DNA from: Candidatus Omnitrophota bacterium
Lineage (GTDB): Bacteria; Omnitrophota; Gorgyraeia; B26-G9
Assembly: GCA_043805415.1 (NCBI GenBank)
Contig: JAZDHZ010000033.1
Coordinates: 25,600 to 89,599, forward strand
Reading direction: 5' to 3'
Length of the DNA: 64,000 bases
Below are positions 3,365 to 57,336 of this stretch, piece by piece (positions within the stretch are counted from its first letter, which is position 1; each line of letters begins with the position of its first letter). A model generated the notes under the pieces. It was given only the letters and a program-made list of their open reading frames with translations, was not told the origin of the DNA and ran no database searches. Both the position numbers and the translations under genes were made by a program.

Positions 3365-3381
3365 CGCGAACGGAGAGAGCA

Positions 3382-4167: not shown

Positions 4168-4249
4168 ATGGGGAATTTAAACGGGGCGAAGTGATTATTA
4201 CCTGCCTATAGAGTAACTTCAATAATTTTTTAAGCGATATTTTAGTTTA

Positions 4250-13447: not shown

Positions 13448-13460
13448 GGAAGAACTTATT

Positions 13461-14432: not shown

Positions 14433-14444
14433 AACTTAGAGGAT

Positions 14445-15329
14445 TTGATGAGGAAAATCAAGGTAGGCATTATTGGGACAGGCAATATTGGTAGCGATTT
14501 GCTGATGAAAATAATGCGGTCAAATATTTTAGAATGTGGGATGTTTACTGGCAGAAATCCAGGATCTGAAGGTGTAAAAAGAGCAAAGAGTTTAGGAGTC
14601 AGGGTATCATCCGATTCTGTAAAGGCTATAGAAGATGATCCTGATTGCTGTGAGATTGTATTTGATGCTACTTCAGCAAAAGTACATTTGCATAATGCGC
14701 TTATTCTTGAGAAGTTGGGAAAATATACCATTGATCTAACCCCTTCACAGGTAGGGAAAATGTGTGTGCCTGTAATTAATATGGCAGAATGCCTGGATGT
14801 CAAAAATGTTAATCTCATAACTTGCGGCGGGCAAAGTGTAATACCGATAGCATATGCGATTATGAAGGTGCATCCTGAAACAGAATATATAGAGATTGTT
14901 GCTAGCATATCTTCTAAATCCGCCGGCCCAGGGACAAGAGCTAATATTGATGAGTTTACACAAACCACTCGTGATTCTATATTGTCATTTACCGGGGTGC
15001 CAAAGGCAAAAGCGATTATAGTATTAAATCCCGCTGAGCCGCCAGTTTTAATGCATAATACTATCTATGCGACTATAAAAGAACCTAAGATAGACCAGCT
15101 AAATTTTGAGATTAAAGCAATGGTTAAAAAAATTCAACAGTATGTTCCGGGATACAGATTAAAGCTTGGTCCGTTAGTAGAGAATAACCGAGTTGCTACA
15201 ATGATAGAAGTCGTGGGATTGGGAGATTATTTACCGGAATATTCTGGTAATCTGGATATTATTACCTGTGCAGCGGTAAAGATTGCTGAAGAATATGCAA
15301 AAAGCCGTCTAATAAAACAAAAGAAATAA
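14445..15329 (+). CDS. dmpF: Acetaldehyde dehydrogenase (acetylating), DmpF/MhpF-type
   Basis: KVGIIGTGNIGSDLLMK...DATSA..H...CGGQSVIP...VASISSKSAGPGTRANIDEFT. The last stretch is identical to a DmpF signature. Confidence 0.9.
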   Translation: MMRKIKVGIIGTGNIGSDLLMKIMRSNILECGMFTGRNPGSEGVKRAKSLGVRVSSDSVKAIEDDPDCCEIVFDATSAKVHLHNALILEKLGKYTIDLTPSQVGKMCVPVINMAECLDVKNVNLITCGGQSVIPIAYAIMKVHPETEYIEIVASISSKSAGPGTRANIDEFTQTTRDSILSFTGVPKAKAIIVLNPAEPPVLMHNTIYATIKEPKIDQLNFEIKAMVKKIQQYVPGYRLKLGPLVENNRVATMIEVVGLGDYLPEYSGNLDIITCAAVKIAEEYAKSRLIKQKK

Positions 15330-15334
15330 AAATT

Positions 15335-16372
15335 ATGAATAAGATATTATTTTTTGATTCAACTCTTCGCGATGGTTCTCACGCAGTAGCGCATCAACTT
15401 ACTGGTGAAAACATTAAAAACTATTGCAATGAAATAGACAGCGCTGGAACATATACGGCGATTGTCGGTCACGGAAATGGACTAGGAGCTTCGTCTTTAC
15501 AGGTCGGGTTGTCTGCTTTAACCGACCGTGAAATGTTGTCTATAGCGCGGAATCAAATTAAAAAAACTCGGTTGGGAGTTTTCCTGATTCCGGGGTTTGG
15601 GACGATTAAGGATGATCTGGCTCCAGCACTTAAAATTGGTGTTGATCTTGTTTGTGTGGCTTCACATTGTACGGAAGCGGATGTAACAAGGCAACATATT
15701 GAATATGTTCGGAGCAAAGGTAAGGAAGCCTTCGGAGTCTTGATGATGCAGCACATGACGACAAAAGAGCGCTTACTTGAAGAAGCTTTAAAAATGCAGG
15801 AATACGGGGCTTTAGGAGTAATTTTAATGGATTCAGCAGGAGCCTCTATGCCAAATTCAGTTACGGAGAATGTCGAGACCTTGGTCAGAGGAATGAATAT
15901 TAAAGTAGGTTTTCATGCTCATAACAATCTGGGGATGGCTATTGCGAATTCTTTTGCGGCGATAAAAGCCGGAGCAACAATTATTGATGGTACTTTGCGT
16001 GGTTTTGGGGCTGGCGCGGGAAATTGTCAGTTGGAAGTTCTTGCGGGTTGTTTACATAAAGCAGGTATTGAAACGGGACTTGACTTATATAAATTGATGG
16101 ATGTTAGTGAGAATATTGTTGCTGGAATGATGAAAAGACCTCAGGAAATTAGTTCCTTAGGTTTAATTAGCGGTTTAGCTGGGGTTTTTTCCGGGTTTTC
16201 GACAAAGGTTAAAATTGCCGCAGAAAGATTTGGAGTTGATCCACGGGATATATTTATGGAGTTGGGTAAACGCAAAGTTGTTGGAGGACAGGAAGATTTT
16301 ATAACTGATGTTGCTATGGAACTTGCGGAACAAAAGAACGAAAAAGCTAAAAACCAGGATTTGTCTTTTTAA
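15335..16372 (+). CDS. dmpG: 4-hydroxy-2-oxovalerate aldolase, DmpG/MhpE-type (HMGL-like TIM barrel)
   Basis: FFDSTLRDGSHAVAHQ... Length 345 aa equals DmpG, and it sits immediately downstream of dmpF as in meta-cleavage operons. Confidence 0.88.
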   Translation: MNKILFFDSTLRDGSHAVAHQLTGENIKNYCNEIDSAGTYTAIVGHGNGLGASSLQVGLSALTDREMLSIARNQIKKTRLGVFLIPGFGTIKDDLAPALKIGVDLVCVASHCTEADVTRQHIEYVRSKGKEAFGVLMMQHMTTKERLLEEALKMQEYGALGVILMDSAGASMPNSVTENVETLVRGMNIKVGFHAHNNLGMAIANSFAAIKAGATIIDGTLRGFGAGAGNCQLEVLAGCLHKAGIETGLDLYKLMDVSENIVAGMMKRPQEISSLGLISGLAGVFSGFSTKVKIAAERFGVDPRDIFMELGKRKVVGGQEDFITDVAMELAEQKNEKAKNQDLSF

Positions 16373-16393
16373 AATATTCACTGGAGGATTAAA

Positions 16394-17140
16394 ATGATCA
16401 AAGAACAAATGCGAAATGGAAAATTTGTTTTGGGAACTTGGTGTGAGTTACCGAGCCCGGCAGCGATCAATGTTATGGCTAAGGCGGGACTTGATTTTGT
16501 GATCATTGATATGGAACACAGTGTTATGGACTTTAAGACAGCGCAGGAAATGGTATTAGCCGCGGAAGCTGATGGTTGTGATGCGATTATTAGGGTGTGT
16601 CGTAATGATGAATCGGATATTTTAAGAGCATTGGATACTGGTGCGGCTGGGATTATTGTTCCGCATATAGAAAATGTTGAAGACAGGGAGAAGGTTGTTA
16701 GGTACAGTAAGTTTGCCCCTAAAGGTGATAGAGGGTTTAACCCATATATACGTGCCGGAGGCTATAATAGTGTAGGAGCAGATTATTTTCAATTACAGAA
16801 TGAGAAAGTTTTGGTATGTATAATAGTTGAAGGTAAAGAGGCAATGGCCAATCTTGACGAAATTATTTGTGATTCTGATATAGATGTTGTATATATCGGT
16901 ACATATGATTTATCGGTTGCTTTTGGCGTTCCAGGTGATGTGAAGAATAAAAAAGTTACCAATGCGTTAGTGAATTGCGTAGAGAAAATCATTAAGGCTG
17001 GAAAAAGTGCTGGGTGCATGGTTCATAATGCAGATGATCTTAGGTGGTTTAAACAGATAGGAATTCAGTTTATTGCGTACAAGGCTGATACGGCAATAAT
17101 ATTTGATGCCTTTAGCAGTATGAAAAAGGAGATAAGTTAG
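16394..17140 (+). CDS. HpcH/HpaI-family class II pyruvate aldolase (2-keto-3-deoxy-acid aldolase)
   Basis: LGTWCELPSP...DFVIIDMEHS...GIIVPHIEN...GDRGFNP are HpcH/HpaI/YfaU family hallmarks. Confidence 0.8.
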   Translation: MIKEQMRNGKFVLGTWCELPSPAAINVMAKAGLDFVIIDMEHSVMDFKTAQEMVLAAEADGCDAIIRVCRNDESDILRALDTGAAGIIVPHIENVEDREKVVRYSKFAPKGDRGFNPYIRAGGYNSVGADYFQLQNEKVLVCIIVEGKEAMANLDEIICDSDIDVVYIGTYDLSVAFGVPGDVKNKKVTNALVNCVEKIIKAGKSAGCMVHNADDLRWFKQIGIQFIAYKADTAIIFDAFSSMKKEIS

Positions 17141-18951
17141 TGATAAAATTATCAGATTATATTGTTAAGTTTCTTGAGAAAAATTCAGTAAACCGTATTT
17201 TTATGCTTACTGGCGGCGGTTGTATGCATTTGGTTAATTCTATAGGTAACTCTAAAAAAATTAAATATATTTGTTGTCATCATGAGCAGTCTTGTGCTAT
17301 GGCTGCAGAGGCATTTGCTAAATTCAAAAATGATCTGGGGGTGGTGGTGGTTACCAGCGGGCCAGGAGGGACGAATACTATTACTGGCGTAGCTGGTGCT
17401 TATCAGGATTCTGTACCCTGCATTTTTATTTCTGGACAGTCTAAGCGGCAACAAACAGTTAGGAATTCAAAAATTAAATTAAGACAGTTTGGGGTGCAGG
17501 AAGTCGATATAATTCCAATAGTTGAATCGATAACAAAATATGCGGTTATGGTAAATGAATCTAAAAAAGTAAAATATCATCTTGAAAAGGCTTTGTATTT
17601 GGCAAAATCAGGAAGACCTGGGCCAGTATGGCTAGATATTCCTTTGGATGTGCAGAGCTCTCTTATAGACGAAAATGAACTAATTAGCTTTGATCCCAGT
17701 GAGCTTGAAGAAGATTTTAAAATAGAGCCATTAGCAGATGAAGTTTCCAGGATGGTAAATTATTTAAAGACAGCACAGCGTCCGGTAATTATTGCTGGGC
17801 GCGGAATAAGAATAGCAGGCGCAGTAAAAGAACTGGTTAGTTTTGCTAGAAAATATAAAATTCCGGTTGTTACCCCGATTATGGGTATAGATGTCATCTC
17901 GAGCGATGATAAAAACTATATTGGCCGAGTGGGAACAAAAGGGACCCGCGCAGGAAATTTTGCTATGCAAAATGCCGATTTAATATTGAGTATCGGTAGC
18001 CGTTTAAGCGTATCGGTGGTGGGACACGAATATAAATTATTTGCCCGCGAAGCAAAGGTTGTGGTGGTTGATATTGATACCGTAGAACATAGAAAGAAAA
18101 CTATAAACATTTTCGATTTCATCAATTCTGACGCGAAAAAATTTTTGGAAAAACTTGCGAGCGCATTGAAAAATGAAAAACTTGTATTTTCAGATAATTG
18201 GCTAAGGAAATGCAATGAGTGGAAACATAAATATCCAGTGTGCTTGCCGGAGTATAAGAAAACCAAGAAAAATATTAATTTTTATAATTTTATGGATAAG
18301 CTGAATAAAAAGCTAACTGCGGATATCCCCGTAATATCAGATGCCGGGTCAGCTTTCTATGTGGTGTCCCAAGCTATTCATATAAAAAGTGGACAGAGGT
18401 ATATCACATCCGGGGCTTTGGCAACAATGGGATTCGGTCTGCCGGCAGCTATTGGAGTAGCCGCGGCTCTAAAAAAAGATACCCCGGTGGTAACTATAAC
18501 CGGCGAGGGGTCATTTCAGCTGAATATCCAAGAGTTGCAGACAATTGTTCACAATAAGTTTCCAATAAAAATTTTTGTGATAAATAATAAAGGATATTTA
18601 TCGATACGTCAGACTCAGAAGAGGTTTTTTAACGGAAATCTTGTTGGTGAAGGACAGACATCAGGTTTATCTTTTCCTGATACAAAAAAAATTGCCGCGG
18701 CTTACAATGTTAAGTTTGTAAAAGTGGAAAATAATGAAAAACTCGTAAAAGCCTTAGATGAGGTGTTTGCTCATGAAGGGCCTGTTTTATGTGAGATTTG
18801 CGCTTTGGAAGACCAGTTGATCATTCCGACAAATAGCGCGGCGATTAGGGCTGACGGGTCAATGGTTTCAAAACCATTGGAAGATATGTTCCCTTTTTTA
18901 GATCGCAAGGAGTTCTTGGCTAATATGATTGTTACTCCCTGTGAGGAATAG
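17140..18951 (+). CDS. ThDP-dependent acetolactate-synthase-like enzyme, YerE-like branched-chain sugar synthase candidate
   Basis: Three-domain AHAS-like architecture, 603 aa (N-terminal GGGCMHLV, central domain, C-terminal ThDP-binding GEGSFQLNIQEL). It sits between the rfbFG and rfbH homologues, as YerE does in the yersiniose pathway. Confidence 0.75.
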   Translation: MIKLSDYIVKFLEKNSVNRIFMLTGGGCMHLVNSIGNSKKIKYICCHHEQSCAMAAEAFAKFKNDLGVVVVTSGPGGTNTITGVAGAYQDSVPCIFISGQSKRQQTVRNSKIKLRQFGVQEVDIIPIVESITKYAVMVNESKKVKYHLEKALYLAKSGRPGPVWLDIPLDVQSSLIDENELISFDPSELEEDFKIEPLADEVSRMVNYLKTAQRPVIIAGRGIRIAGAVKELVSFARKYKIPVVTPIMGIDVISSDDKNYIGRVGTKGTRAGNFAMQNADLILSIGSRLSVSVVGHEYKLFAREAKVVVVDIDTVEHRKKTINIFDFINSDAKKFLEKLASALKNEKLVFSDNWLRKCNEWKHKYPVCLPEYKKTKKNINFYNFMDKLNKKLTADIPVISDAGSAFYVVSQAIHIKSGQRYITSGALATMGFGLPAAIGVAAALKKDTPVVTITGEGSFQLNIQELQTIVHNKFPIKIFVINNKGYLSIRQTQKRFFNGNLVGEGQTSGLSFPDTKKIAAAYNVKFVKVENNEKLVKALDEVFAHEGPVLCEICALEDQLIIPTNSAAIRADGSMVSKPLEDMFPFLDRKEFLANMIVTPCEE

Positions 18952-18959
18952 GTGAAGAT

Positions 18960-19916
18960 ATGATTCATGCAAGAAAAAAGTTAGCAAAAAAGCGTATTTT
19001 TATTACTGGTGCCAAAGGTTTCGTGGGCAGAAATCTTGAGGAATATCTTAAGAAACAAAATAACTATGAATTGTTTTGTCCTTCACATAGTGAGTTGGAA
19101 TTGCTGGATCCAGAGCAAGTAGAACAATATATAATTTCTAATAAAATAGAGGTGATTATTCATTCGGCTAATCGGGGAGGTTCGCGTAAAGAAGGATATA
19201 ATAATATCGGCACTGATGTATTTTATAAAAATGTGCGCATGTTTTTTAATTTAGCGCGGACTGTTAAAAAAGGAATTAAAATGCTCCATCTGGGTAGCGG
19301 TGCTGAGTTTGATCGGCGAAATTATATTCCGAAGATGAGAGAAGATTATTTTGATACCTTTGTGCCTGAGGATGATTATGGGTTCTCAAAATATGTTTGT
19401 AATAAATTTATAATGAATACAACGGATTCTGTAATAAATTTACGTCTTTTTGCCAATTTTGGAAAATATGAAGATTATGAGTTCAGATTTATTTCAAACT
19501 CAATATTAAAAAATTTGCTGGGGCTTCCAATTACTATCCGTCAGAATGTTAAATTTGAATTTTTATACGTAAATGATTTAGTCAGGATAATAGAGTATTT
19601 TATCAATAATTATGCTAAGTATAAAGCCTATAATATCGCGACGGGAAAACCAGTTGATTTAGTTTCGATTGCGGAGAAGATTAATAAAACATCTAAAAAC
19701 CCTACAGAAGTAATTGTATGCAATCCCGGATTGAATAATGAATATACCGCTGATAATACACGATTGATGGAAGAATTAAAAGATTTCAAGTTCACTCCTA
19801 TTGAAAAGTCGATACGGCAGCTGTATGAGTGGTATAAGGATAATTTAAATTCTCTGAATATAGATAGTGTTATAAAAGATAAATATATTAACGCTTGCCG
19901 GGTTAGGAAAGAATAG
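18960..19916 (+). CDS. NAD(P)-dependent epimerase/reductase (SDR), CDP-paratose/abequose synthase- or YerF-like ketoreductase candidate
   Basis: ITGAKGFVGRNL Rossmann motif, about 300 aa, next to E1 and the YerE-like gene. Confidence 0.55.
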   Translation: MIHARKKLAKKRIFITGAKGFVGRNLEEYLKKQNNYELFCPSHSELELLDPEQVEQYIISNKIEVIIHSANRGGSRKEGYNNIGTDVFYKNVRMFFNLARTVKKGIKMLHLGSGAEFDRRNYIPKMREDYFDTFVPEDDYGFSKYVCNKFIMNTTDSVINLRLFANFGKYEDYEFRFISNSILKNLLGLPITIRQNVKFEFLYVNDLVRIIEYFINNYAKYKAYNIATGKPVDLVSIAEKINKTSKNPTEVIVCNPGLNNEYTADNTRLMEELKDFKFTPIEKSIRQLYEWYKDNLNSLNIDSVIKDKYINACRVRKE

Positions 19917-19918
19917 TT

Positions 19919-21241
19919 ATGGATAAAAGGGGGAAACTGCGTAAGCAGATTCTAAAAAAAGTAAAGGAATATCATAAAGCGGGTGTACGAGTTCCTTTTA
20001 TTCCAGGGAAATCTAATGTGCCTTATGCCGGTCGAGTGTTTGATGAAAAAGAACTGGTCAATCTAGTTGATGCTTCTTTAGATTTTTGGCTTACTGCCGG
20101 CAGGTTTGCGGATAAATTTGAAAAGGGTCTTGCTGATTTCTTAGGAGTGAAATATTGTCTTTTGACAAATTCAGGTTCTTCTGCTAATCTTCTGGCAATA
20201 TCCGCGTTAACTTCTCCTTTATTGAAAAAACGCCAGCTAAAGGCTGGAGATGAAGTTATTACTACTGCTTGCGGATTTCCAACAACGCTTAATCCTATTT
20301 TGCAAAATAATTTAGTTCCAGTGTTTGTGGATGTGCAATTGGGTAATTACAATATTGATGTTAGCTGTATTGAGAAAGCTGTTTCAAAAAAAACAAAAGC
20401 GATTTTTGTTCCCCATACTCTGGGGAATCCGTTTGATCTTGATAAGGTTTTAAAGATCGCAAAAAAATACGGATTATTTGTTATTGAAGATAATTGCGAT
20501 GCTCTTGGATCAAAATACAAAGGAAAATTTACCGGTACATTTGGTGATATTGCAACCTGTAGTTTTTATCCCGCGCACCATATTACAATGGGTGAAGGCG
20601 GGTCCTTGCTGACCAATGACCCACTGCTGCATCGAATTATTCTTTCTTTTAGGGATTGGGGCCGTGATTGCTGGTGTGACCCAGGCAAGGACAATAGCTG
20701 TAAAAAACGTTTTTTGCAAAAACATGGAAACCTGCCATATGGTTATGATCATAAATATGTGTATTCACATATTGGATATAATTTAAGAGTTACAGATATG
20801 CAGGCAGCTATTGGCGTTGCTCAATTAAAAAAACTTGATTCGTATATAAAACAACGAAAAAATAATTTCGCTTATCTTTTTAAATATCTGTGTAAATTTG
20901 ATAAATACTTTATTTTGCCAAAATCATATCAAGGGACTGAACCAAGCTGGTTTGGTTTGCCCATTTTAGTAAAAAAAGACGCGCCTTTTACCAGGAACGA
21001 TATTGTTAATTATCTGGAGGAGAATAAGATTGCTACCCGAATGCTTTTTGGGGGTAATTTAACTAAACAACCGGCGTACAAAAACGCGATATATAAAGTA
21101 TCTGGGAACTTAAATAATACCGATTTAGTTATGAATAATTTATTTTGGATAGGGGTGTATCCGGGACTTACTAAAAACATGTTGAATTATATCTGTGAAA
21201 AATTTGAAATATTTTTTAAAAAAGTAATTAAAGATAAATAA
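19919..21241 (+). CDS. rfbH: CDP-6-deoxy-D-xylo-4-hexulose-3-dehydrase (E1), PMP-dependent DegT-family with [2Fe-2S] motif
   Basis: DegT/DnrJ fold with YPAHHITMGEGG (His replaces the PLP-Lys, diagnostic of E1) and a Cys cluster DWGRDCWCDPGKDNSC. Length 440 aa. Confidence 0.88.
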   Translation: MDKRGKLRKQILKKVKEYHKAGVRVPFIPGKSNVPYAGRVFDEKELVNLVDASLDFWLTAGRFADKFEKGLADFLGVKYCLLTNSGSSANLLAISALTSPLLKKRQLKAGDEVITTACGFPTTLNPILQNNLVPVFVDVQLGNYNIDVSCIEKAVSKKTKAIFVPHTLGNPFDLDKVLKIAKKYGLFVIEDNCDALGSKYKGKFTGTFGDIATCSFYPAHHITMGEGGSLLTNDPLLHRIILSFRDWGRDCWCDPGKDNSCKKRFLQKHGNLPYGYDHKYVYSHIGYNLRVTDMQAAIGVAQLKKLDSYIKQRKNNFAYLFKYLCKFDKYFILPKSYQGTEPSWFGLPILVKKDAPFTRNDIVNYLEENKIATRMLFGGNLTKQPAYKNAIYKVSGNLNNTDLVMNNLFWIGVYPGLTKNMLNYICEKFEIFFKKVIKDK

Positions 21242-21447: not shown

Positions 21448-22392
21448 ATGACCACTGAGGGGCAGGTCAGGAGGATAATGGATCCAGAAATACGGACAGA
21501 GACTTTAACCAGTTGTCCTATCTGCAATAGCGTTGTAATTTTAATGCTCCTTGAGGCGCGGGATTATGAAAGTAATCTAGGAACATATTCAATATTCAGA
21601 TGCTCAAACTGTAAAGTATGTTTTACTAACCCCAGAGTGATAGAGGAAGATATTCCAAGAATGTATACTGAGAATTTTGGCGGTGTGGATATTGCGACCT
21701 CAAGTAATGTTTCTTACATATTGAAAACACTTAAGATCCGGGGCTACTCCAGGAAAATTCTTAAGGAGTGTCATAAGAAAGAGAATTTACGAGTTCTTGA
21801 TTTAGGGTGTGGTGATGGACTTATAGCTAGCCATTTATCATTTAACAAACTGTGTGCGAGTGTTGTCGCAGCTGATTTTTCTCCCGAGGCACCGGCAATT
21901 TTCAAGAAACACCCAATAAAGAATTTATGCTATATTCAGTATCAAAAACTTTTCAATGATTGTACCGAAAAATTTGACCTTATAGTTTTGCGGCACGTAT
22001 TGGAACACACTATTTCTCCCCGTGAGTTTATTCGTTCTGCAGCCTCACTATTAGCTGATAATGGAACTATTGTCATAGAGATCCCAAATATTGATACGGT
22101 GTGGAGAAATATATTTAAGGGCAAGTATATACAATTAGACGTTCCTTTTCATTTTTTTCACTTTAATAAGCAATCATTTTACTCAACTTTTGGGGGAGAT
22201 TACAATATAAAGAGGTTTCAGTATGCTAGTATCCCTGTTTTGGGTCCGAGCTTGCTTAATTGTTTCGGTCTAAGAGTAAACAGGGTTGGATTGATGGCGA
22301 TTATGTTTTATCCAATACAATTAGTTTTTAATTTTATATTTCAAGGCTATCCTGCGATGCTAATTTCGTTACAAAATAAATCACCTGATTAG
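21448..22392 (+). CDS. Class I SAM-dependent methyltransferase with N-terminal zinc-ribbon
   Basis: CPICNS...CSNCKVCF zinc ribbon, VLDLGCGDG SAM motif I, and a C-terminal IPN...W...LDVPFHFFHF motif shared with the 30827 and 60952 paralogues. Confidence 0.75.
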   Translation: MTTEGQVRRIMDPEIRTETLTSCPICNSVVILMLLEARDYESNLGTYSIFRCSNCKVCFTNPRVIEEDIPRMYTENFGGVDIATSSNVSYILKTLKIRGYSRKILKECHKKENLRVLDLGCGDGLIASHLSFNKLCASVVAADFSPEAPAIFKKHPIKNLCYIQYQKLFNDCTEKFDLIVLRHVLEHTISPREFIRSAASLLADNGTIVIEIPNIDTVWRNIFKGKYIQLDVPFHFFHFNKQSFYSTFGGDYNIKRFQYASIPVLGPSLLNCFGLRVNRVGLMAIMFYPIQLVFNFIFQGYPAMLISLQNKSPD

Positions 22393-30826: not shown

Positions 30827-31753
30827 ATGGGTTTATTAGAATATACAAAATGTCCGTTTTGCGAATCAGGCAAATATAAACAGTTATTTTCAGGAAAAGA
30901 TTTTCTTTTTTCTAAAGAAGAATTTTCAGTTGTAAAATGTCAAGATTGCGGATTGCGATATACTAATCCGCGGGTTAAACAAGATCAGATAAAAAGTTAT
31001 TATTATACTGGATACTCTTCATATGAAAGTCCTGATTTAGGACTTAATAAAAAAAATAAAAACGTATTATATCGTTTTTTTGGAAACATTCATTTTGAAG
31101 TATTGGAATTCATTAAATCAGTCAATGCCAGAACTGTATTAGAAATCGGGCCGGGGAACGGGAGTTTGCTTTATTTTTTAAAAGATCAAGGTTTTGATGT
31201 TTGCGGGGTTGAATTGGATAGTAGTTCTGCCCAAAAGATCATGGAGCATGGTGTCAAGTGTTATTCAGGAGATTTAAATTCTGTTATAAGTGAGATGAGT
31301 GGGAAAAAGTTTGACATTGTAATCCTATGTCAGGCATTTGAACATTTATATAACCCTAAAATGACACTAACTAATATACATAAAATTCTGAATGATAATG
31401 GGGCTCTTTATCTGAGTTTGCCTAACAGCGGTTCAATGGAGGCAAGACTATTTGGAAAGTTTTGGCGGGGGTTTGATTTGCCTCGGCACATTGTACATTA
31501 TGATAAAAAAACGATTAAATCAATGCTAAATAAATCAGGATTTAGTGTTATTGCCCAGTACAATCAAAATTTCCCATCGTCTTTTGTGGAGAGTCTTGGT
31601 TTTTGCTTATTCAGGAAAAGAAAGATATCTACTAAATTGTATTATTTTTTATACTATTTATGGAAATTGATTAGTCCGATTCATTTAAGGCTAATTGGTT
31701 CAGGGGTTATGACAGTAATATCAGTTAATCAAAAGGGTTGTGAAAGAAAATGA
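30827..31753 (+). CDS. Class I SAM-dependent methyltransferase with N-terminal zinc-ribbon (paralogue of 21448 and 60952)
   Basis: CPFCES...CQDCGLRY zinc ribbon, VLEIGPGNG motif, and C-terminal LPN...W...DLPRHIVHYD. Confidence 0.75.
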   Translation: MGLLEYTKCPFCESGKYKQLFSGKDFLFSKEEFSVVKCQDCGLRYTNPRVKQDQIKSYYYTGYSSYESPDLGLNKKNKNVLYRFFGNIHFEVLEFIKSVNARTVLEIGPGNGSLLYFLKDQGFDVCGVELDSSSAQKIMEHGVKCYSGDLNSVISEMSGKKFDIVILCQAFEHLYNPKMTLTNIHKILNDNGALYLSLPNSGSMEARLFGKFWRGFDLPRHIVHYDKKTIKSMLNKSGFSVIAQYNQNFPSSFVESLGFCLFRKRKISTKLYYFLYYLWKLISPIHLRLIGSGVMTVISVNQKGCERK

Positions 31754-33114
31754 AGATCTTGTTTGTGAATGCAATAGACATTTCTAAAGGGATAGAGACG
31801 GCTTATCCTCCGTTGGGACTAGCATATTTATCCGCTATTTTGAAAAATAATTTTAAGGATATTCAGATTAAAATTATTGACCGTGATGTTGAGCCAGTAA
31901 TTAAATCTTTTTGTCCTGATGCAGTAGGGGTTTCATCGGTTTCCCAAAATTATGGGAGAGCTATTGAAGTGGGGAGATTGTGTAAATCATTGCAAATCCC
32001 CGTGTTTATCGGCGGGGTGCATATCACGTTACTTCCGGAATCTTTGTCAGCGGAATTTGATTTCGGGGTGTATGGAGAGGCTGAAGAGACAATTATTGAT
32101 ATTATTAAGTATTTTAAAAAAAGTATCCCATTAGATTGCATAGGATTGGCTGATATTAAAGGGCTTATTCTACATGCGCAGGATGGAGTAAAATTAACTG
32201 CCCCAAGACCTCTTATTGAGAATCTTAATTCGATCCCTTTTCCAGCTAGAGATTTATTGAGTATTCCCATAGGACAGAGTACATATATGTTTACTTCCAG
32301 AGGATGTCCTTATAAATGTGCTTTTTGTGCTTCTACGAGATTCTGGAATAATGTTAGATGGTTCTCGGCTGAATATGTTGTGAATGAAATAGAAGAAATA
32401 ATAAGGAAATATAAGCCGTTTGCCATATCTTTTTATGATGACCTTTTTATTGCCAATACCAAGAGACTTGAGAAAATCATTGACCTACTGTGTGCTAAAG
32501 GTATAAATAAAAAAGTTAAATTTAGTTTTGCTTGTCGGGCTAATCTTGTTAATGAGAAATTGATTAAAATTTTAAAACCTTTGGATATTCAGATGATTTG
32601 TATGGGATTGGAATCCGGTTGTCAAAAGACATTGAGCTATTTGAAGGGAAGTGCAATTACGATTGAGCAAAATAAAAAAGCCATAAATATTTTCGCAGAT
32701 GCTAAGATCAATATTCAGGCCACGTTCATTATTGGGTCTCCTGAAGAAACTGAGGACGAAATATTGCAGACATTGCAGTTTATTAAGGACAGTAAACTTA
32801 CCAATTTTGAGGTGTACCTGCTGAGCCCTTTTCCCGGGACTCCGGTTTGGGAAACTGCTAAATCAATGGGATTGGTTTCCAATCAAATGGATTGGGCAAA
32901 ATTAGCAGTAGATTCTCAAAATTGCTTTGACAACAGGATAATACTGTCTAAGATAAGTAAGACCAGGCTTTCTGAGTTATACGGACTTTTTTCTCATGAA
33001 AAGAAAAGAAGGAAAATACTTTATATACTTAAAATGGGAATTTGTAATCCATTATGGGTGCTAACAAAAGCACGCGCTGTTATTTTAAATGTTTTACAAG
33101 GTAAAGATAGTTAA
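31750..33114 (+). CDS. B12-binding radical SAM enzyme (class B radical SAM methyltransferase candidate)
   Basis: N-terminal cobalamin-binding-like Rossmann region and SRGCPYKCAFCAS (CX3CX2C). Confidence 0.75.
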   Translation: MKILFVNAIDISKGIETAYPPLGLAYLSAILKNNFKDIQIKIIDRDVEPVIKSFCPDAVGVSSVSQNYGRAIEVGRLCKSLQIPVFIGGVHITLLPESLSAEFDFGVYGEAEETIIDIIKYFKKSIPLDCIGLADIKGLILHAQDGVKLTAPRPLIENLNSIPFPARDLLSIPIGQSTYMFTSRGCPYKCAFCASTRFWNNVRWFSAEYVVNEIEEIIRKYKPFAISFYDDLFIANTKRLEKIIDLLCAKGINKKVKFSFACRANLVNEKLIKILKPLDIQMICMGLESGCQKTLSYLKGSAITIEQNKKAINIFADAKINIQATFIIGSPEETEDEILQTLQFIKDSKLTNFEVYLLSPFPGTPVWETAKSMGLVSNQMDWAKLAVDSQNCFDNRIILSKISKTRLSELYGLFSHEKKRRKILYILKMGICNPLWVLTKARAVILNVLQGKDS

Positions 33115-33131
33115 TAATTATGAATTACAAA

Positions 33132-33160
33132 TTGAAATGCAATGTTCAGTATAGTATAAT
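33132..33160 (+). promoter_or_regulatory. Candidate sigma70 promoter TTGAAA-17-TATAAT
   Basis: TTGAAA at 33132-33137, a 17 nt spacer and TATAAT at 33155-33160, in the 142 bp gap before the 33257 gene. Confidence 0.5.
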
Positions 33161-33256
33161 GATGTTAATTCTTTTGGCCCAAGGGAATAGGAACATTAAT
33201 GAACTGGAAATAAATCAGTTGTGCAATGTATAACCTGTAAATAAGAGTAGGTAATA

Positions 33257-34267
33257 ATGAAAGTATTGATTTATGGAGAAGCTTATGGATATGCTTTAGC
33301 TCCTCAAATAAAAAGATCGTTTGTGCAATTAGGTTGTGATGCCGAAATTTTTAATTGGACAATGTATCTCTATACTGAGAGAGGAATTAACTTAAAAAAT
33401 CGAGTCTTCAATAGAATTATGCTAAAGTCAATTGCTGCGAAGATAAACCGCGATTTTATAAATGTTGTAAAAAAAAATAAATATGATCTTGTTCTAGTCA
33501 ATAATGGGTGGCATCTTACTGGAGATACCATTGATGCTGTTAAGAAATATGCAAAAAAAGTCGTGAATTGGAGTACTGATGAGCTTTTTAATAAGGTATT
33601 TGCTCGATTTATTCACGTTGAATCTTATTCGAAGTATGATTGTATCTTTTCGCAAAGGAAACATCTCTTTGATTCCTATCTCACTAAGGGTATAAAAAGG
33701 GTTGAGTTTTTGCCTTTATTTTATTATCCAGAACATCATCCTGTTGTTGTTTCGGAAAAAGATAAACTTTTATGGGGTAGCGATATAGCCTTCATGGGAA
33801 CATGGAACAAAGAGAGAGAAAAAATTATTGAGGCTTTAACTGGGTATAATGTTAAAATTTGGGGTGCCCAATGGAACAGGAGTAAACCAAGTTTTAAGAA
33901 GAAGTTTGAAATTACTAATAAAATCGCATGGTTAGAAGATATGTCAAAAGTTGTGAGTTCTACCAAAATAATTGTTGATAATCTAACTAAGGGGCAAACT
34001 GATAAAGTAAATATGAAGAATTATCAGATACCTGCTTGCGGTGGAGTTCTTTTAACTCAAAGGACTGATGTTATACAGGAATTATTTGAAGAGAACAAAG
34101 AAGTTATTTGCTATGATTCGCTTGAGGAATTGAGGGAAAAATGCGAGTATTATTTGAAGAATGAAGCCGCAAGAAACTCAATAGCGGTTAATGGATATAA
34201 AAAAGTTGTAAGTGCTCCTAACACAATATTAGATAGAATTAAAGATATATTACAGGTCTGCAGCTGA
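33257..34267 (+). CDS. CgeB-like/DUF3880 glycosyltransferase-family protein
   Basis: N-terminal DUF3880-like region and a C-terminal GT1-like segment (YQIPACGGVLLTQ...). Confidence 0.45.
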   Translation: MKVLIYGEAYGYALAPQIKRSFVQLGCDAEIFNWTMYLYTERGINLKNRVFNRIMLKSIAAKINRDFINVVKKNKYDLVLVNNGWHLTGDTIDAVKKYAKKVVNWSTDELFNKVFARFIHVESYSKYDCIFSQRKHLFDSYLTKGIKRVEFLPLFYYPEHHPVVVSEKDKLLWGSDIAFMGTWNKEREKIIEALTGYNVKIWGAQWNRSKPSFKKKFEITNKIAWLEDMSKVVSSTKIIVDNLTKGQTDKVNMKNYQIPACGGVLLTQRTDVIQELFEENKEVICYDSLEELREKCEYYLKNEAARNSIAVNGYKKVVSAPNTILDRIKDILQVCS

Positions 34268-34297: not shown

Positions 34298-35239
34298 ATG
34301 AAATCAAAACTGATTTTTGTTACGGGTGGACTAGGTTTTATCGGAAAACATTTTGTTCAACGTTGTTTGGATATAGGGCATTTTATAACCAACGTTGATA
34401 TGGTCAATTATGCTGCTGACCGGATAGCGAATGATAAGTTTAAGAATCATAAAAATTATAGACATATTCAGGAGGACATTGCTAATCTGAGTCATCTTCC
34501 TGAGAGTGATTTTTTGGTGAATTTTGCTGCGGAATCACATGTGGATAATTCTATCGCCAATAATCGGCAGTTTTGTCATTCTAATATTATTGGTGTTCAA
34601 CGTTTACTTGAATTGACAAGAGCAAAAACTGCTTCCGGGTCACCACATTTTATCCAAATAAGCACTGATGAGGTTTATGGCGATATTATGAATGGAAGAC
34701 ATAGCGAATCAGATCCGCTACGGCCTTCGAATCCTTACTCGGCAACTAAGGCCGCAGCCGATATGCTTGTAATCGGATGGGCGCGGACATATGGAGTTAG
34801 GTATAATATTGTCAGAATGACGAATAATTATGGACCGAATCAATATCCGGAGAAGCTTATTCCAAAATCGGCATGGCGAATGCATCGGGGCTTGCCTGCG
34901 TTGATTCAAGGCGATGGTAGCTATATCCGGTCTTGGTTACATGTTAATGATTCAGTAGAAGCTATTTTAACTATAATCGAGAAAGGGAAATCTAATGTAA
35001 TTTATAATGTACATAGTGACTACGAATTGTCAAATCTTGAAGTGGTTAATAAAATCGCTGCCATTCTTGGAGTATCAAAGAAAGATGCATACATTCATAT
35101 TCCTAACAGGGTAGGGCAGGATGTTCGCTATAGTCTTGACGATACGCTCATTCGAGAGTTGGGATGGAAACCGTTGCGCGATTTTGATACAGAGATTAAG
35201 AAGATCGTCGAAGAAGACGATTTCAAGCGGTTTATTTAG
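34298..35239 (+). CDS. rfbB: dTDP-glucose 4,6-dehydratase-like NDP-sugar dehydratase
   Basis: VTGGLGFIGKHF...FAAESHVDNSI...ISTDEVYGD...NNYGPNQYPEKLIP matches RmlB/RfbB catalytic and NAD motifs. Confidence 0.85.
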   Translation: MKSKLIFVTGGLGFIGKHFVQRCLDIGHFITNVDMVNYAADRIANDKFKNHKNYRHIQEDIANLSHLPESDFLVNFAAESHVDNSIANNRQFCHSNIIGVQRLLELTRAKTASGSPHFIQISTDEVYGDIMNGRHSESDPLRPSNPYSATKAAADMLVIGWARTYGVRYNIVRMTNNYGPNQYPEKLIPKSAWRMHRGLPALIQGDGSYIRSWLHVNDSVEAILTIIEKGKSNVIYNVHSDYELSNLEVVNKIAAILGVSKKDAYIHIPNRVGQDVRYSLDDTLIRELGWKPLRDFDTEIKKIVEEDDFKRFI

Positions 35240-35303
35240 GTTTTTTTGCACTAGTTTAATTAACTATTAACGTAATATTCAATTATTTTCGGAGGGAAAA
35301 AGC

Positions 35304-35705
35304 ATGAAGAAAGATAGTTTAGTGAATGGGGCCATTGTCCCTTTGGATAAACCATTTAAAGATGCAAGGGGGGATATCCAGACGTTGGTTGTTGGCGGTA
35401 TACAGAGTGTTCAGATTATTACATCAAAGGCGAATACAGTTAGGGCTAATCATTATCATAAAACTGATTCCCATTACATGTATTTAATTAAGGGAGTAAT
35501 GAAATATTTCCACAGACCTGCTGGTGATAAAACCGAACCAGCATGTTTTATTATTAAACCAGGGCAGATGGTTTTTACTCCTCCCATGGTAGAACATGCT
35601 GTAGAATTCCTCGAAGACTCTGAATTTATTAATATAACTGGTAAGCCACGAGATCAAGGATCATACGAAGACGATCTTGTCCGTGTTGAACTCCACAAGC
35701 TTTAA
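35304..35705 (+). CDS. Cupin-fold NDP-4-keto-6-deoxyhexose 3,4-ketoisomerase-like (FdtA/QdtA/WxcM family)
   Basis: 133 aa cupin with ANHYHK...HY His cluster. Its size and context match FdtA-type isomerases. Confidence 0.55.
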   Translation: MKKDSLVNGAIVPLDKPFKDARGDIQTLVVGGIQSVQIITSKANTVRANHYHKTDSHYMYLIKGVMKYFHRPAGDKTEPACFIIKPGQMVFTPPMVEHAVEFLEDSEFINITGKPRDQGSYEDDLVRVELHKL

Positions 35706-35723
35706 ATAAAAAGGAATAGTATA

Positions 35724-36974
35724 ATGATGCTGCCTTATCATCACAAGCGAATGGATTGCCGCTTATGCTCTTCTAACGCGCTGGAACGGGTTTTAGAGCT
35801 TACTCCTACGCCTCCGGCTAATGCATTGGTTTCTGCCGCAGAAAAATATAAAGAGCAGACAGTTTATCCTTTAGATGTTTATAGGTGTGTAGACTGTGGT
35901 CATTTACAATTGCTTGACATTGTTGACCCTAAAATTTTGTTTTCTGATTACCCCTATGTGTCAAGTACTTCTCATGTAATGGTTGATTTTCTTAAAAGTC
36001 AATCTACGTCTATTATAAGCCGATTAAAACTTAAACCAGGAGATTTGGTGGTTGAATTTGGCTCCAATGACGGAACGTTGCTTCGTTTCTTTAAAGAGGC
36101 TGGGATGCGTGTTCTTGGAGTAGATCCTGCAGTTAATGTGGCTCCTGAGATAAATGATATTGAAAATATCCGCGATTTTTTTAGCGCAGAATTGGGCAAA
36201 AAGATACGTGAACAATATGGTCCAGCAAAAGCGATTTGTGCTTACAATGTTTGTGCTCATATTGATGACCTCCGTGGAGTTATTGAGGGAGTACGCTCAT
36301 TGTTAGCGCAGGATGGGCAGTTTGTTTTTGAAGTTGGTTACTTGCTAGATGTTTACCGCAAAACATTATTTGATACTATTTATCATGAGCATCTTGATTT
36401 TCACCATGTGGAATCATTAAAGAGATTCTTTTTTTCTAACGAGCTGAAACTTTTACATGTCGAGCATTCCGACATTCAGGGCGGAGCCTTAGTGGGTTAT
36501 GTGGGTGATTCAATTGGATTGGAAGATATCACAGTTGAGGAATTTATAAATAGGGAGCATGTTGAGGGTATTCATCTCGTAGATACTTTTTTACACTGGG
36601 GAGATATGATCAAGCAGACCGGAGAAAAACTAATGATGTTGTTGCTTGACCTTAAAGCAAAAGGCCAATCTATTGCTGCCTATGGAGCTACTGCGAAGGC
36701 AACGACACTGATGTATCACTTTGGCTTAAATAGCTCTGTTATTGATTATATTGTTGATGATAATCCTCTAAAACAGGGGTTGTTTAGTCCTGGATTGCAT
36801 ATCCCTATTTTATCTCCGGAAGTACTTTATCAAGAAAAACCTGACTATGTGTTGGTACTTGCTTGGAATTTTGCTGAGCCGATTATAGCTAAACACCGAT
36901 TTTATGCCGGAGATGATAGCCGATTTATTATACCGCTTCCAGTATTAACTGTTATTAAAAAAGGTAATGGGTAA
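35724..36974 (+). CDS. NDP-hexose C-methyltransferase (TylC3-like: zinc-ribbon + SAM MT + C-methyltransferase C-terminal domain)
   Basis: CRLCSS...CVDCGHLQ zinc ribbon, VVEFGSNDG motif I, and a roughly 150 aa C-terminal domain as in sugar C3-methyltransferases. Confidence 0.7.
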   Translation: MMLPYHHKRMDCRLCSSNALERVLELTPTPPANALVSAAEKYKEQTVYPLDVYRCVDCGHLQLLDIVDPKILFSDYPYVSSTSHVMVDFLKSQSTSIISRLKLKPGDLVVEFGSNDGTLLRFFKEAGMRVLGVDPAVNVAPEINDIENIRDFFSAELGKKIREQYGPAKAICAYNVCAHIDDLRGVIEGVRSLLAQDGQFVFEVGYLLDVYRKTLFDTIYHEHLDFHHVESLKRFFFSNELKLLHVEHSDIQGGALVGYVGDSIGLEDITVEEFINREHVEGIHLVDTFLHWGDMIKQTGEKLMMLLLDLKAKGQSIAAYGATAKATTLMYHFGLNSSVIDYIVDDNPLKQGLFSPGLHIPILSPEVLYQEKPDYVLVLAWNFAEPIIAKHRFYAGDDSRFIIPLPVLTVIKKGNG

Positions 36975-37891
36975 TGCGAATTGGTTTAATCGGTGCCGGC
37001 CGTTGGGGTAAACGTTATATTGAGACACTGAGCAGGATTCCTGGCATTGAACTTACTCACTTGGCTAGCAAAAATCCAGATAGCAGTTTACTTGTTTCCT
37101 CTGCTTGTAAAATAATTACACATTGGCAAGATCTTTTAAAAGAGCGTTTGGACGGTATTATAATAGCTACGCCACCACAAACCCATTTTGAAATAGCGTC
37201 AGCAGCGATAATAGCAGGAATCCCTATTTTAATAGAAAAGCCTATGACGCTTTCTCTATTGGAAGCGAGAAAGCTTGTTCAAGCAGCCACTGATTATGGT
37301 GTTTTAACAATGGTTGGGCATACTCATTTATTTAGTGCTGCTTTTAGGAAGCTTAAAATTATAAGTCAGCGAATGGGTAAATTAAAGCATATTATTTCTT
37401 TAGGAGGTAACTGGGGGCCGTTTAGAATTGATACTCCGCCGCTTTGGGATTGGGCGCCGCATGACATTGCAATGAGTCTTGAACTTACAGGTAACTATCC
37501 TTTACATATTGAGGCGAAACGTATTGAATTTATAGAACAGTCTCAGGGAATTGGAGAAACTGTTAATATTATGCTTAGTTTTGATTCCGGCTCCTACGCC
37601 GATATACAGGTAAGTAACATTCAGAAAAATAAAACAAGGTTTTTTGAGGCGGTGTATGAAAATGGGTCATTAGTTTATGATGATCTTGCTGATAATAAAC
37701 TTGTTCTCAGCGTTTCTTCAGAGGCAGTCCCTACACCTATTATTCTTGATAAATCTCTGTCGCTTACTAATCTTGTGTATGAGTTTTCTCACGCTATCTC
37801 TGCAGGCAATAGATATGACAGGAGTCTGCACCTTGGTTTGCAGGTGGTTGAAGTCCTTGATGAATGTCAAAGAAGGCTAACCGGGAAATAA
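36974..37891 (+). CDS. Gfo/Idh/MocA-family NAD(P)-dependent oxidoreductase (sugar ketoreductase/dehydrogenase candidate)
   Basis: MRIGLIGAGRWGKRYI Rossmann N-terminus and the EKPM motif typical of the family. Confidence 0.7.
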   Translation: MRIGLIGAGRWGKRYIETLSRIPGIELTHLASKNPDSSLLVSSACKIITHWQDLLKERLDGIIIATPPQTHFEIASAAIIAGIPILIEKPMTLSLLEARKLVQAATDYGVLTMVGHTHLFSAAFRKLKIISQRMGKLKHIISLGGNWGPFRIDTPPLWDWAPHDIAMSLELTGNYPLHIEAKRIEFIEQSQGIGETVNIMLSFDSGSYADIQVSNIQKNKTRFFEAVYENGSLVYDDLADNKLVLSVSSEAVPTPIILDKSLSLTNLVYEFSHAISAGNRYDRSLHLGLQVVEVLDECQRRLTGK

Positions 37892-51558: not shown

Positions 51559-51642
51559 TTTTAATTTTCATAAGGAATTATTTAAAATGAAAACAAATAG
51601 TTTAATTTTTGATTAATACTCTGGAGTGAAAAAGGCAAGAGC

Positions 51643-53429: not shown

Positions 53430-53433
53430 ATTT

Positions 53434-53605
53434 CTAATTTCTAATTACTAATTGACCTAAAATAAATAAAAAAATAACTAATAAATTACTAATGGATCTA
53501 AAATTATTAAAAAAGAGTTTACTGAATAAAGTACTGATTGACTTAAAATAGATAAAAATAAAATAAGAGTTGAGTAAATTACTAATTATTAGTAGACCTA
53601 AAATG
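53434..53605 (+). repeat. Repeat-rich leader: (CTAATTN)x3 heptamer array followed by four degenerate ~45-bp tandem units (core TTACTAATNGACCTAAAAT) ending at the 4HB start codon
   Basis: CTAATT at 53434, 53441 and 53448. Unit cores start near 53446, 53494, 53533 and 53582. The last unit contains the ATG of the four-helix-bundle gene. Confidence 0.8.
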
Positions 53606-53962: not shown

Positions 53963-53986
53963 TTTTGACATTGGTAATTATTTAGA

Positions 53987-54013
53987 AATTAGATTAATTA
54001 GGTTAATTAGATC
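53987..54013 (+). repeat. (AATTAGNNN)x3 array, inverse complement of the CTAATT array upstream of the 4HB gene
   Basis: AATTAG at 53987, 53996 and 54005 with a 9-bp period. Together with 53434-53453 it forms inverted hexamer arrays that bracket the 4HB gene. Confidence 0.7.
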
Positions 54014-54037
54014 AATTGAGGAAAGTGTAATCAAAAT

Positions 54038-55531: not shown

Positions 55532-55554
55532 TTTTTTAGAAATAATGTTTTAGG

Positions 55555-57293: not shown

Positions 57294-57336
57294 CTATAGA
57301 GAAGTTTTTTGATTTAAATCCTGTCTTAATAGGAAT

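Follow-up and report, generated by a model that had tools for sequence, protein, structure and literature searches.

Class B radical S-adenosylmethionine (SAM) enzymes, which join a cobalamin (B12)-binding domain to a radical SAM core, form a very large group, most of whose members have no known function. Where their action on sugars has been characterized, it is almost always in hopanoid or antibiotic biosynthesis. GenK, GenD1, and MoeK5 are B12-dependent radical SAM (B12-rSAM) sugar C-methylases, and similarity networks group Fom3, MoeK5, and HpnJ together (PMC9204698, PMC12931638). Our literature searches found no description of B12-rSAM enzymes in O-antigen-type, lipopolysaccharide, or polysaccharide loci or in Omnitrophota. 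Here we describe three such genes, rSAM_31750, rSAM_54038, and rSAM_59406, in a window of 64,000 nucleotides (nt) from a Candidatus Omnitrophota metagenome-assembled genome (MAG; assembly GCA_043805415.1, contig JAZDHZ010000033.1). Genes are named by their start positions in this window, which Pfam and NCBIfam annotation identifies as a Wzx/Wzy-type surface-polysaccharide locus of ~60 kb. Two of the three genes form evolutionarily conserved cassettes, A and C, with glycosyltransferase (GT) and class I methyltransferase (MT) genes. The explanation that we favor, tentatively, is that the cassettes tailor lipid-linked sugars and that cassettes A and C C-methylate them.

The three proteins share a GG/GD-x-H loop, a B12-binding Rossmann domain, and a three-cysteine radical SAM core, which places them in class B, the B12 domain of rSAM_54038 being borderline. 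rSAM_31750 (31750–33114, +; 454 amino acids [aa]) scores 56.6 bits with the B12-binding family PF02310 and 70.3 bits with the radical SAM family PF04055; rSAM_59406 (59406–60926, +; 506 aa) scores 71.2 and 73.4 bits, respectively. rSAM_54038 (54038–55531, +; 497 aa) is HpnJ/BchE-like and scores 62.9 bits with PF04055. The cluster-binding motif is CPYKCAFC in rSAM_31750 (nt 32305–32328) and CPSSCTFC in rSAM_59406 (nt 60090–60113), both CX3CX2C, and CWWGTCTFC in rSAM_54038 (nt 54719–54745), CX4CX2C. The same architecture occurs in ArsL-type proteins and AprD4, which do not bind cobalamin (PMC12931638).

A sequence-only reading of this DNA had described the three genes as class B-like, each beside a class I MT, and as one recurring module in three copies. 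The first two points are borne out by Pfam. The third is ruled out: the rSAM proteins are 23–26% identical to one another (each is 28–31% identical to Paraburkholderia HpnJ), the MT gene precedes rSAM_31750 but follows rSAM_54038 and rSAM_59406, and the orthologue sets are separate. By these comparisons the three are anciently diverged families, unrelated by recent descent. Relatives of rSAM_31750 are 57–75% identical in metagenomes and 43–49% identical in Margulisiibacteriota, Collierbacteria, Aenigmatarchaeota, and Pacearchaeota, and the range of the family includes Omnitrophota and Elusimicrobia. Those of rSAM_54038, on very many Omnitrophota metagenome contigs, are 56–86% identical, and those of rSAM_59406 are 47–92% identical in Omnitrophota, Kiritimatiellae, Nitrospina, and Firestonebacteria.

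For comparison of gene context, we retrieved the loci of relatives, to which the L numbers below refer. Cassette A spans 30827–34267. It begins with ZnMT_30827 (30827–31753, +; 308 aa), a zinc-ribbon class I SAM-dependent MT (Methyltransf_23, 82 bits; CxxC...CxxC at aa 9–41) whose stop overlaps the start of rSAM_31750 by 4 nt, and ends with a GT1_2-type glycosyltransferase (33257–34267, +; PF13524), the conserved downstream partner. In L173 and L174, rSAM_31750 orthologues (71% and 64% identity) come immediately after ZnMT_30827 orthologues (57% and 49%), with a 20-nt gap in L173 and a 4-nt overlap in L174, and both loci keep the window's order of ZnMT, rSAM, GT1_2_33257, GT2_37864, and GT4_38941. 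In L175, an Elusimicrobia-labelled contig, and L176, a Pacearchaeota genome, a shorter MetW-type MT directly follows the rSAM gene. Thus, the pair is adjacent in four loci (L173–L176) from Omnitrophota-like, Elusimicrobia, and Pacearchaeota sources. GT1_2 orthologues directly follow the rSAM/MT pair in L173 (44%), L174 (39%), and L175 (63%). Looser versions, with the MT within one or two genes, occur in L001, L002, L003, L005, and L020; in the more distant L001, L003, and L020, the MT is one gene away from the rSAM gene.

Cassette C (57337–61878) consists of two glycosyltransferase genes (57337–59413, +), GT4 (57337–58563) and GT2 (58556–59413), followed by rSAM_59406, which the GT2 gene overlaps by 8 nt, and by its partner ZnMT_60952 (60952–61878, +), a zinc-ribbon MT of 308 aa with a predicted C-terminal transmembrane helix. 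The Omnitrophota locus L167 carries GT4, GT2, rSAM_59406, and ZnMT_60952 in the same order at 83, 80, 92, and 61% identity. In Nitrospina L171, GT4, rSAM, and ZnMT are in order at 49, 54, and 45% identity, and the GT2_58556 orthologue (46%) is further upstream, directly after a CX4CX2C rSAM gene 34% identical to rSAM_54038. Since L171 holds both the cassette C genes and a CX4CX2C rSAM gene, the content of 54038–61878 is mirrored in another phylum. The rSAM/MT pair is adjacent in L167, L168, and the Nitrospina loci L171 and L172, and a distantly related adjacent pair (~29% identity) occurs in Nealsonbacteria L071. Downstream of cassette C, a 301-aa protein (62010–62915, +) with a weak, below-threshold Methyltransf_23 signal (E = 9e-4) occupies the slot of a second B12-rSAM gene in L167 and L171. 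In L171, the cassette is followed by a YfhO-family membrane protein gene on the opposite strand.

The third gene has a different conserved partner. Upstream of rSAM_54038 is a conserved block (50356–53429, +) encoding a Wzy_C-domain membrane protein, an ArnC/PpgS-like GT2 (51643–52419), and a membrane GT2 (52416–53429). We examined rSAM_54038 orthologues in 80 metagenome loci and two genome loci. The GT2_52416 orthologue was the immediate upstream neighbor in 58 of 66 informative loci, the usual order being Wzx, GT2 (51643-like), GT2 (52416-like), and rSAM. The GT2 and rSAM genes overlapped or lay at most 60 nt apart in 61 of 73 loci: they overlapped in 35, by 4 nt in 26 of these, and were separated by a gap within 60 nt in the other 26. 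Directly downstream of the rSAM gene, where the window has MT_55555 (55555–56271, +), a class I MT of 238 aa without a zinc ribbon, we found an MT_55555-like gene in 1 of 63 loci and a ZnMT gene in 2, a total of 3. The spacing points to translational coupling of the rSAM_54038 family to the membrane GT2 in relatives, not to a methyltransferase. The pairing of rSAM and MT genes seen in the window is therefore conserved for 31750/30827 and 59406/60952 and is not conserved for 54038/55555. The possibility that the clusters are conserved away from sugar genes was also checked, and the rSAM genes stay with sugar genes in related loci.

The methyltransferases 30827, 55555, and 60952 all belong to class I (Methyltransf_23/11). 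An N-terminal CxxC...CxxC ribbon is present in 30827, 60952, and 21448, which are 25–28% identical to one another; the two ribbon-bearing rSAM partners had been correctly recognized as paralogues from the sequence, as had ZnMT_21448 (21448–22392, +), counted there as a fourth zinc-ribbon MT, which has a predicted C-terminal transmembrane helix at aa 280–298. Eight members of this family share four invariant cysteines, SAM-binding glycines, an E-H pair, and a P-R-H motif. Alignment of the family with the TylC3-type enzyme of the locus using hhalign gave a probability of 97.7% (E = 1.3e-12) over the ribbon and the MT core. PF08421 and PF08484 found no match in 30827, 60952, or 21448, so these proteins lack the three-domain TylC3 organization; their C terminus carries a D-x-P-R-H segment and a hydrophobic tail in place of the NDP-binding Methyltransf_14 domain, and for ZnMT_60952 and ZnMT_21448 this end is predicted to form a transmembrane helix. 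These features fit a sugar-directed methyltransferase acting at the membrane. Solved-structure searches with the three rSAM-adjacent methyltransferases returned generic class I methyltransferases only.

The TylC3-type enzyme itself (35724–36974) has Methyltransf_13 (PF08421, 67 bits) and Methyltransf_14 (PF08484, 157 bits) domains, the TylC3/TcaB9 architecture, as the sequence-only reading had supposed. According to Pfam, it lies within a block (34298–37891, +) that also encodes an epimerase/dehydratase, a cupin, and a GFO oxidoreductase, and whose predicted functions make it a classical nucleoside diphosphate (NDP)-sugar C-methyl branch, placed beside cassette A as an insertion. In L175 (8033–10673), epimerase, cupin, and TylC3-type MT proteins are 84%, 77%, and 75% identical to those of window 34298–36974. 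As in the window, a GFO oxidoreductase comes next, and the block likewise follows the rSAM_31750 orthologue and GT1_2. This likeness points either to a tailoring cassette that was transferred horizontally or to a contig binned wrongly.

The CX4CX2C motif of rSAM_54038, also pointed out from the sequence, is genuine and family-wide. RDCWWxxCxFCSW was invariant in 14 of 14 aligned homologues. Among 84 orthologues in the retrieved loci, 75 have CX4CX2C and nine (L090, L091, L098, L100, L114, L118, L133, L145, and L158) have CX7CX2C (RDCWHRKxGGCTFC). CX3 never occurs, and the spacer after the first cysteine is thus variable in length but never the canonical three residues. The same loci hold 145 other full-length rSAM open reading frames (ORFs), assigned to families 31750 and 59406; CX3CX2C is present in 144, and the remaining one lacks a recognizable motif. 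Six distant relatives of rSAM_54038 divide into four with CX3CX2C and two, both from Nitrospina, with CX4CX2C. In the AlphaFold2 model of rSAM_54038, confidence is lowest exactly at the CX4CX2C loop.

The same gene had been credited with a repeat-derived insert. A heptanucleotide repeat, (AAGCCRC)x4.6, is indeed present at 54492–54523 in the inter-domain linker, where it encodes KATSHKPQAAS, and the sequence of this linker varies in all homologues. As the window linker is as long as those of the four closest homologues, nothing has been inserted, and the repeat brings no net gain. A 14-nt perfect repeat (x2.3) at 54339–54370, read in two frames, is likewise without a length change. An AT-rich segment of ~600 bp (53430–54037, +) does separate GT2_52416 from rSAM_54038. 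It contains a gene for a four-helix-bundle, "23S rRNA IVS" (intervening sequence) protein (53570–53962; PF05635, TIGR02436), 41–45-nt tandem repeats (53443–53558), and, at its ends, a 15-nt inverted repeat (53433–53447/53979–53993). The segment looks like a small mobile insertion that split the GT2/rSAM pair. A promoter and terminator scan around this insertion (53.4–54.0 kb) gave nothing above background. Short perfect or near-perfect heptanucleotide repeats also occur elsewhere, CAAGACA x4.6 in a HisH-like gene (3006–3037) and AATTTCT x3.6 in an intergenic region (53429–53453). Since gain or loss of a 7-nt unit would shift the reading frame, slipped-strand switching at such repeats is possible.

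The rSAM enzymes of the locus probably modify sugars in uncharacterized ways. We propose that each cassette would tailor the sugar just added by the neighboring glycosyltransferase, probably at the membrane and before the glycan leaves its polyprenol carrier. The B12-rSAM enzyme of cassettes A and C would most likely use a 5′-deoxyadenosyl radical and methylcobalamin to methylate an unactivated sugar carbon, as do MoeK5, GenK, and GenD1, and the zinc-ribbon MT would supply that residue with a second methyl group, a polar one. We prefer C-methylation for these two cassettes, giving it nearly an even chance, because their B12 domains score well, a methyl-transfer partner is conserved beside them, and GenK, GenD1, and MoeK5 set a precedent. 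For rSAM_54038, methylation and a non-methylating rearrangement seem about equally likely, because its B12 domain is below threshold, its cluster loop is altered, it has an HpnJ-like signature, and it is coupled to a GT2.

We infer that the substrates would be lipid-linked intermediates rather than free NDP-sugars. The reasons are that rSAM genes overlap glycosyltransferase genes (by 8 nt at 59406; 4 nt is the commonest GT2/rSAM_54038 overlap), that GT2_52416 has predicted C-terminal transmembrane segments, that GT2_51643 resembles polyprenyl-phosphate sugar synthases, and that two of the zinc-ribbon MTs are predicted to be tail-anchored. Fom3 acts on a nucleotide-activated substrate, and free NDP-sugars are thus still conceivable here.

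Several results weigh against this explanation, and they come from gene context, domain scores, and the known functions of the closest relatives. In context, about 16 of 235 B12-rSAM genes in the retrieved loci (~7%) are directly beside an MT homologous to those of the window; ZnMT_21448, which serves as an internal control, has no rSAM gene alongside; and a Kiritimatiellae orthologue of rSAM_59406 has no MT alongside. The zinc-ribbon MT family, as ZnMT_21448 indicates, can apparently function without an adjacent rSAM gene. The low share of ~7% bears on the possibility that the rSAM and MT genes are independent tailoring genes without functional coupling, MT genes being frequent in the locus. 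The window contains seven or eight of them, and the adjacency of 54038 and 55555, as noted, is not conserved. However, the rSAM/ZnMT pairs persist across phyla (ZnMT 45–61%, rSAM 54–92% identity), often overlapping or close, and when 57 gene labels were shuffled in 200,000 permutations, all three rSAM genes touched an MT gene in 0.7–1.0% (p ~0.01). We therefore consider independence of the two genes highly improbable.

In domain scores, the PF02310 match of rSAM_54038 is 29.2 bits, under the gathering score of 32.1, and none of the three proteins reached a curated NCBIfam cut-off. The highest-scoring models were BchE for rSAM_31750 (121 bits against a cut-off of 481, followed by HpnJ at 106, ApyD at 105, MgmA at 100, and PhpK at 99), HpnJ for rSAM_54038 (149 against 578; BchE, 119), and Sden_1168 for rSAM_59406 (172 against 575; ApyD, 169; HpnJ, 168; BchE, 161). 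Cut-offs were missed for all curated C- and P-methylase models (PhpK, Sden_1168, KedN5, HpnR, MgmA, TsrM, and C-methyltransferases of ribosomally synthesized and post-translationally modified peptides), including TIGR03975 (129 bits against 282) and MgmA (100 against 360). Models for two non-methylating enzymes fared no better. The HpnJ model TIGR03471 gave 106, 149, and 168 bits against 577.6, and we found no hopanoid genes in the window; the AprD4 model NF033070 gave 60.6 bits for rSAM_31750 and 76.7 for rSAM_59406 against 500, and rSAM_54038 was not listed.

As for relatives, HpnJ, BchE, and OxsB are non-methylases (PMC9204698, PMC12931638), and among solved structures the top score for families A and C (E = 7e-22 and 3e-20) goes to AprD4, which dehydrates sugar 1,2-diols and binds no cobalamin (PMC12931638). 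In solved-structure searches with single sequences and family profiles, the glutamine methylase of methyl-coenzyme M reductase, MgmA (9CCB; PMC11796369, PMC12931638), scored about as well as AprD4 (6FD2), and OxsB, TokK, CysS, and TsrM came next. Two AlphaFold2 models, with pLDDT values of 90.0 (rSAM_31750) and 74.5, align over both domains with TsrM, MgmA, OxsB, TokK, and CysS; the best Foldseek matches of the rSAM_31750 model were TsrM, MgmA, OxsB, AprD4, CysS, and TokK. For the two models, TM-scores were 0.6–0.72 to methylases and non-methylases alike. Sequence identities to characterized class B enzymes lie between 15 and 30%. Since no model cut-off was reached and the nearest relatives are a mixture of methylases and non-methylases, the sequence alone cannot say "methylase". 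The claim that the locus implies unusually heavy C-alkylation of sugars is thus a conjecture; moreover, at least two B12-rSAM genes are present in 38 of 171 retrieved loci and at least three in 16, one locus having seven, and three per glycan locus are by themselves not exceptional in these lineages. In uncultured bacteria and archaea, some glycan-type loci (L009, L027, and L036) carry three to seven B12-rSAM genes in tandem.

The mixture of relatives raises the possibility of non-methylating radical sugar chemistry (dehydration, oxidation, epimerization, or ring contraction), above all for rSAM_54038. In cassettes A and C, a keto product could then be C-methylated next to its carbonyl by the TylC3-related ZnMT, which is remotely homologous to keto-sugar C-methyltransferases, and the persistence of the pair would be accounted for. 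Besides its profile scores, AprD4 gave the highest TM-scores (0.72/0.72 and 0.68/0.74). The AprD4 alignments are limited, however, to the radical SAM core, whereas in families A and C the N-terminal domain aligns with the true cobalamin-binding domains of CysS and TokK. For rSAM_54038, HpnJ is not only the top NCBIfam model, aligned over nearly its full length, but also a parallel in gene order, as it lies beside the GT2 HpnI with overlapping genes, and an FCxWPQ/FCxYPQ signature is common to HpnJ, a Lawsonia radical SAM protein, and rSAM_54038. The ring-contracting OxsB, moreover, has CX4CX2C and is the only enzyme with this motif among the solved class B structures (PMC9204698). Against these likenesses, HpnJ has CX3CX2C and is equally similar to rSAM_59406 and rSAM_54038 (116 bits each), GT2_52416 has no similarity to HpnI detectable by BLAST, and the cassettes have neither a reductase (AprD3 analogue) nor a deacetylase (HpnK analogue) next to them. 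On balance, we find such chemistry possible, if somewhat unlikely, as an explanation for the locus.

The matches to CysS and TokK, found in both the structural and the profile searches, suggest a further possibility, sequential alkyl building, in which the MT makes an O- or N-methyl group that the B12-rSAM enzyme extends to ethyl, isopropyl, or larger ethers. CysS extends a methoxy group, and the titles of PDB entries 9n1b and 9n1c, which name 3-methoxy and 3-ethoxy ligands, are consistent with this. Such a sequence would explain an obligate MT and rSAM pair, and also an arrangement that recurs in L002, L167/L168, and L171/L172, in which an MT gene is sandwiched between two B12-rSAM genes. However, the proteins are not specifically closer in sequence to CysS or TokK than to the rest of class B, and the MT gene lies on either side of the rSAM gene or one to two genes off. 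We know of no O-ethyl or O-isopropyl sugars in natural glycans, which counts against it too, and we judge alkyl extension improbable.

Matches to lipid-directed B12-rSAM models, the ladderane-type TIGR04072 (77–109 bits) and HpnR, are weak. They nevertheless admit a substrate other than a sugar, such as the lipid carrier, lipid A, another membrane lipid, or a protein, the enzymes merely riding in a glycan locus; HpnP and HpnR methylate lipid carbons (PMC12931638). The scores are far below cut-off, and the consistent neighbors across phyla are glycosyltransferases, flippases, and NDP-sugar enzymes. A non-sugar substrate seems to us the least probable of these alternatives, and C-methylation of lipid-linked sugars by cassettes A and C remains the explanation that we prefer.

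Like the cassettes, the rest of the locus is organized for glycan assembly. From ~2.6 kb to the 3′ end of the window, nearly all ORFs are on the + strand, and GC content is 32–41%. Three proteins of the Candidatus Omnitrophota MAG (MFH1062518.1, MFH1062538.1, and MFH1062543.1) are 100% identical to window proteins, with slightly different called lengths. These matches rule out a Leptospira rfb locus, which the GC content, the one-strand arrangement, and the IVS-protein gene had brought to mind. Pfam and NCBIfam identify Wzx-like flippases at 5199 and 25071, a Wzz protein at 9632, a small PglC-type initiating transferase at 47692, a PglF/WbpM-type dehydratase at 48397, and ~17 glycosyltransferases. 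Nucleotide-sugar functions include fucose synthase and GDP-mannose dehydratase, accompanied by a GT11; a CDP-hexose branch, to which an aminotransferase and a thiamine-diphosphate enzyme belong; an FnlA/RmlD-like/2-epimerase trio; and UDP-glucose dehydrogenase, in addition to the TylC3-type C-methyl branch. An Rfam scan of the window detected no cobalamin riboswitch or other RNA.

The CDP-hexose branch (12674–21241) encodes a nucleotidyltransferase, a 4,6-dehydratase-like enzyme, DmpFG-like acetaldehyde dehydrogenase and 4-hydroxy-2-oxovalerate aldolase, an HpcH/HpaI aldolase, an acetolactate-synthase/YerE-like thiamine-diphosphate enzyme, an epimerase/reductase, and a DegT aminotransferase. 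This content suggests a two-carbon-branched (yersiniose-like) amino sugar. In L167, the thiamine-diphosphate enzyme and DegT genes adjoin one more B12-rSAM gene. The locus begins (2628–5068) with genes for a HisH-like glutamine amidotransferase, a HisF-like cyclase, and a PP-loop ATPase, a trio that resembles WbuX/Y/Z-type sugar amidation or acetamidino formation and also heads L081. Just outside the locus is a gene for a spore-photoproduct-lyase-family radical SAM protein (178–1581, −; 467 aa), which is not class B and has no bearing on the three rSAM genes, and at the other end a multi-pass membrane protein (~63010–64000) runs past the window.

On present comparisons, the three rSAM proteins are uncharacterized variants of a known enzyme class in a context without prior report. 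Three widely distributed families are now defined together with their conserved partners, a zinc-ribbon MT for two and a coupled membrane GT2 for one, and they are tractable expression targets. Success with them could uncover novel radical chemistry on the cell-surface sugars of Omnitrophota, Nitrospina, candidate phyla radiation bacteria, and DPANN archaea, and would link what these organisms display at their surface to the supply of cobalamin. Should the enzymes prove to be ordinary C-methylases, GenK/MoeK5-type chemistry would gain a useful, if incremental, extension to structural polysaccharides. A bolder synthesis, which we consider doubtful, is that B12-rSAM enzymes constitute a widespread, unrecognized post-glycosyltransfer tailoring layer on polyprenol-linked surface glycans of uncultivated anaerobic bacteria and DPANN archaea. 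In it, rSAM and ZnMT would be obligate two-step units (radical activation and then polar methylation, or extension of a methyl to a larger alkyl group), the CX4/CX7CX2C family with its membrane GT2 would not methylate a lipid-linked sugar but rearrange its carbon skeleton, and the products would be sugars new to glycans.

The known systems each resemble part of this locus. Like the ZnMTs, TylC3/TcaB9-type enzymes have an N-terminal four-cysteine ribbon and a Rossmann MT core, but the ZnMTs have the D-x-P-R-H segment and hydrophobic tail where those enzymes have Methyltransf_14. AprD4, from the apramycin pathway, is the best solved match to families A and C, has a similar size and fold, and acts on a sugar; it differs in its lack of cobalamin binding (PMC12931638) and in matching through the radical SAM core alone. 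The oxetanocin enzyme OxsB (PDB 5UL2-4) shares CX4CX2C with rSAM_54038, acts on a sugar ring (PMC9204698), and is a Foldseek match for both models. It differs in its length of 744 aa and its extra N- and C-terminal domains, is 15–19% identical, and was not detected by the rSAM_54038-family profile. HpnJ and HpnI parallel the rSAM_54038 family in that a B12-type rSAM gene overlaps a membrane GT2 gene and FCxWPQ follows the cluster cysteines, whereas HpnJ differs in its CX3CX2C motif and its equal similarity to rSAM_59406. The score of 149 bits, against a cut-off of 577.6, and the lack of similarity between GT2_52416 and HpnI rule out orthology with HpnI/HpnJ.

MoeK5, GenK, and GenD1 share with the locus a class B architecture, a sugar substrate (proposed here), and clustering with glycosyltransferase and class I MT genes, and MoeK5 acts on a lipid-linked sugar after a glycosyltransferase step. 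They belong to actinomycete antibiotic pathways, whereas the genes described here lie in a Wzx/Wzy locus of an uncultured bacterium of the Planctomycetes-Verrucomicrobia-Chlamydiae (PVC) group, a distinction drawn from context. A plasmid of Lawsonia intracellularis (NZ_CP107057; L086, 11959–27066) encodes a radical SAM protein 28–29% identical to rSAM_54038, the best match in the plasmid collection by BLASTP and tblastn, in the order GT2, GalE, GT2, DUF2304, SIS-domain, rSAM, MT (split into two ORFs), rSAM, four MTs, and GT2. Its locus, likewise uncharacterized, differs in having CX3CX2C and in belonging to another phylum. This plasmid of an obligate intracellular pathogen provides the closest example of the theme in the annotated record of a named organism.

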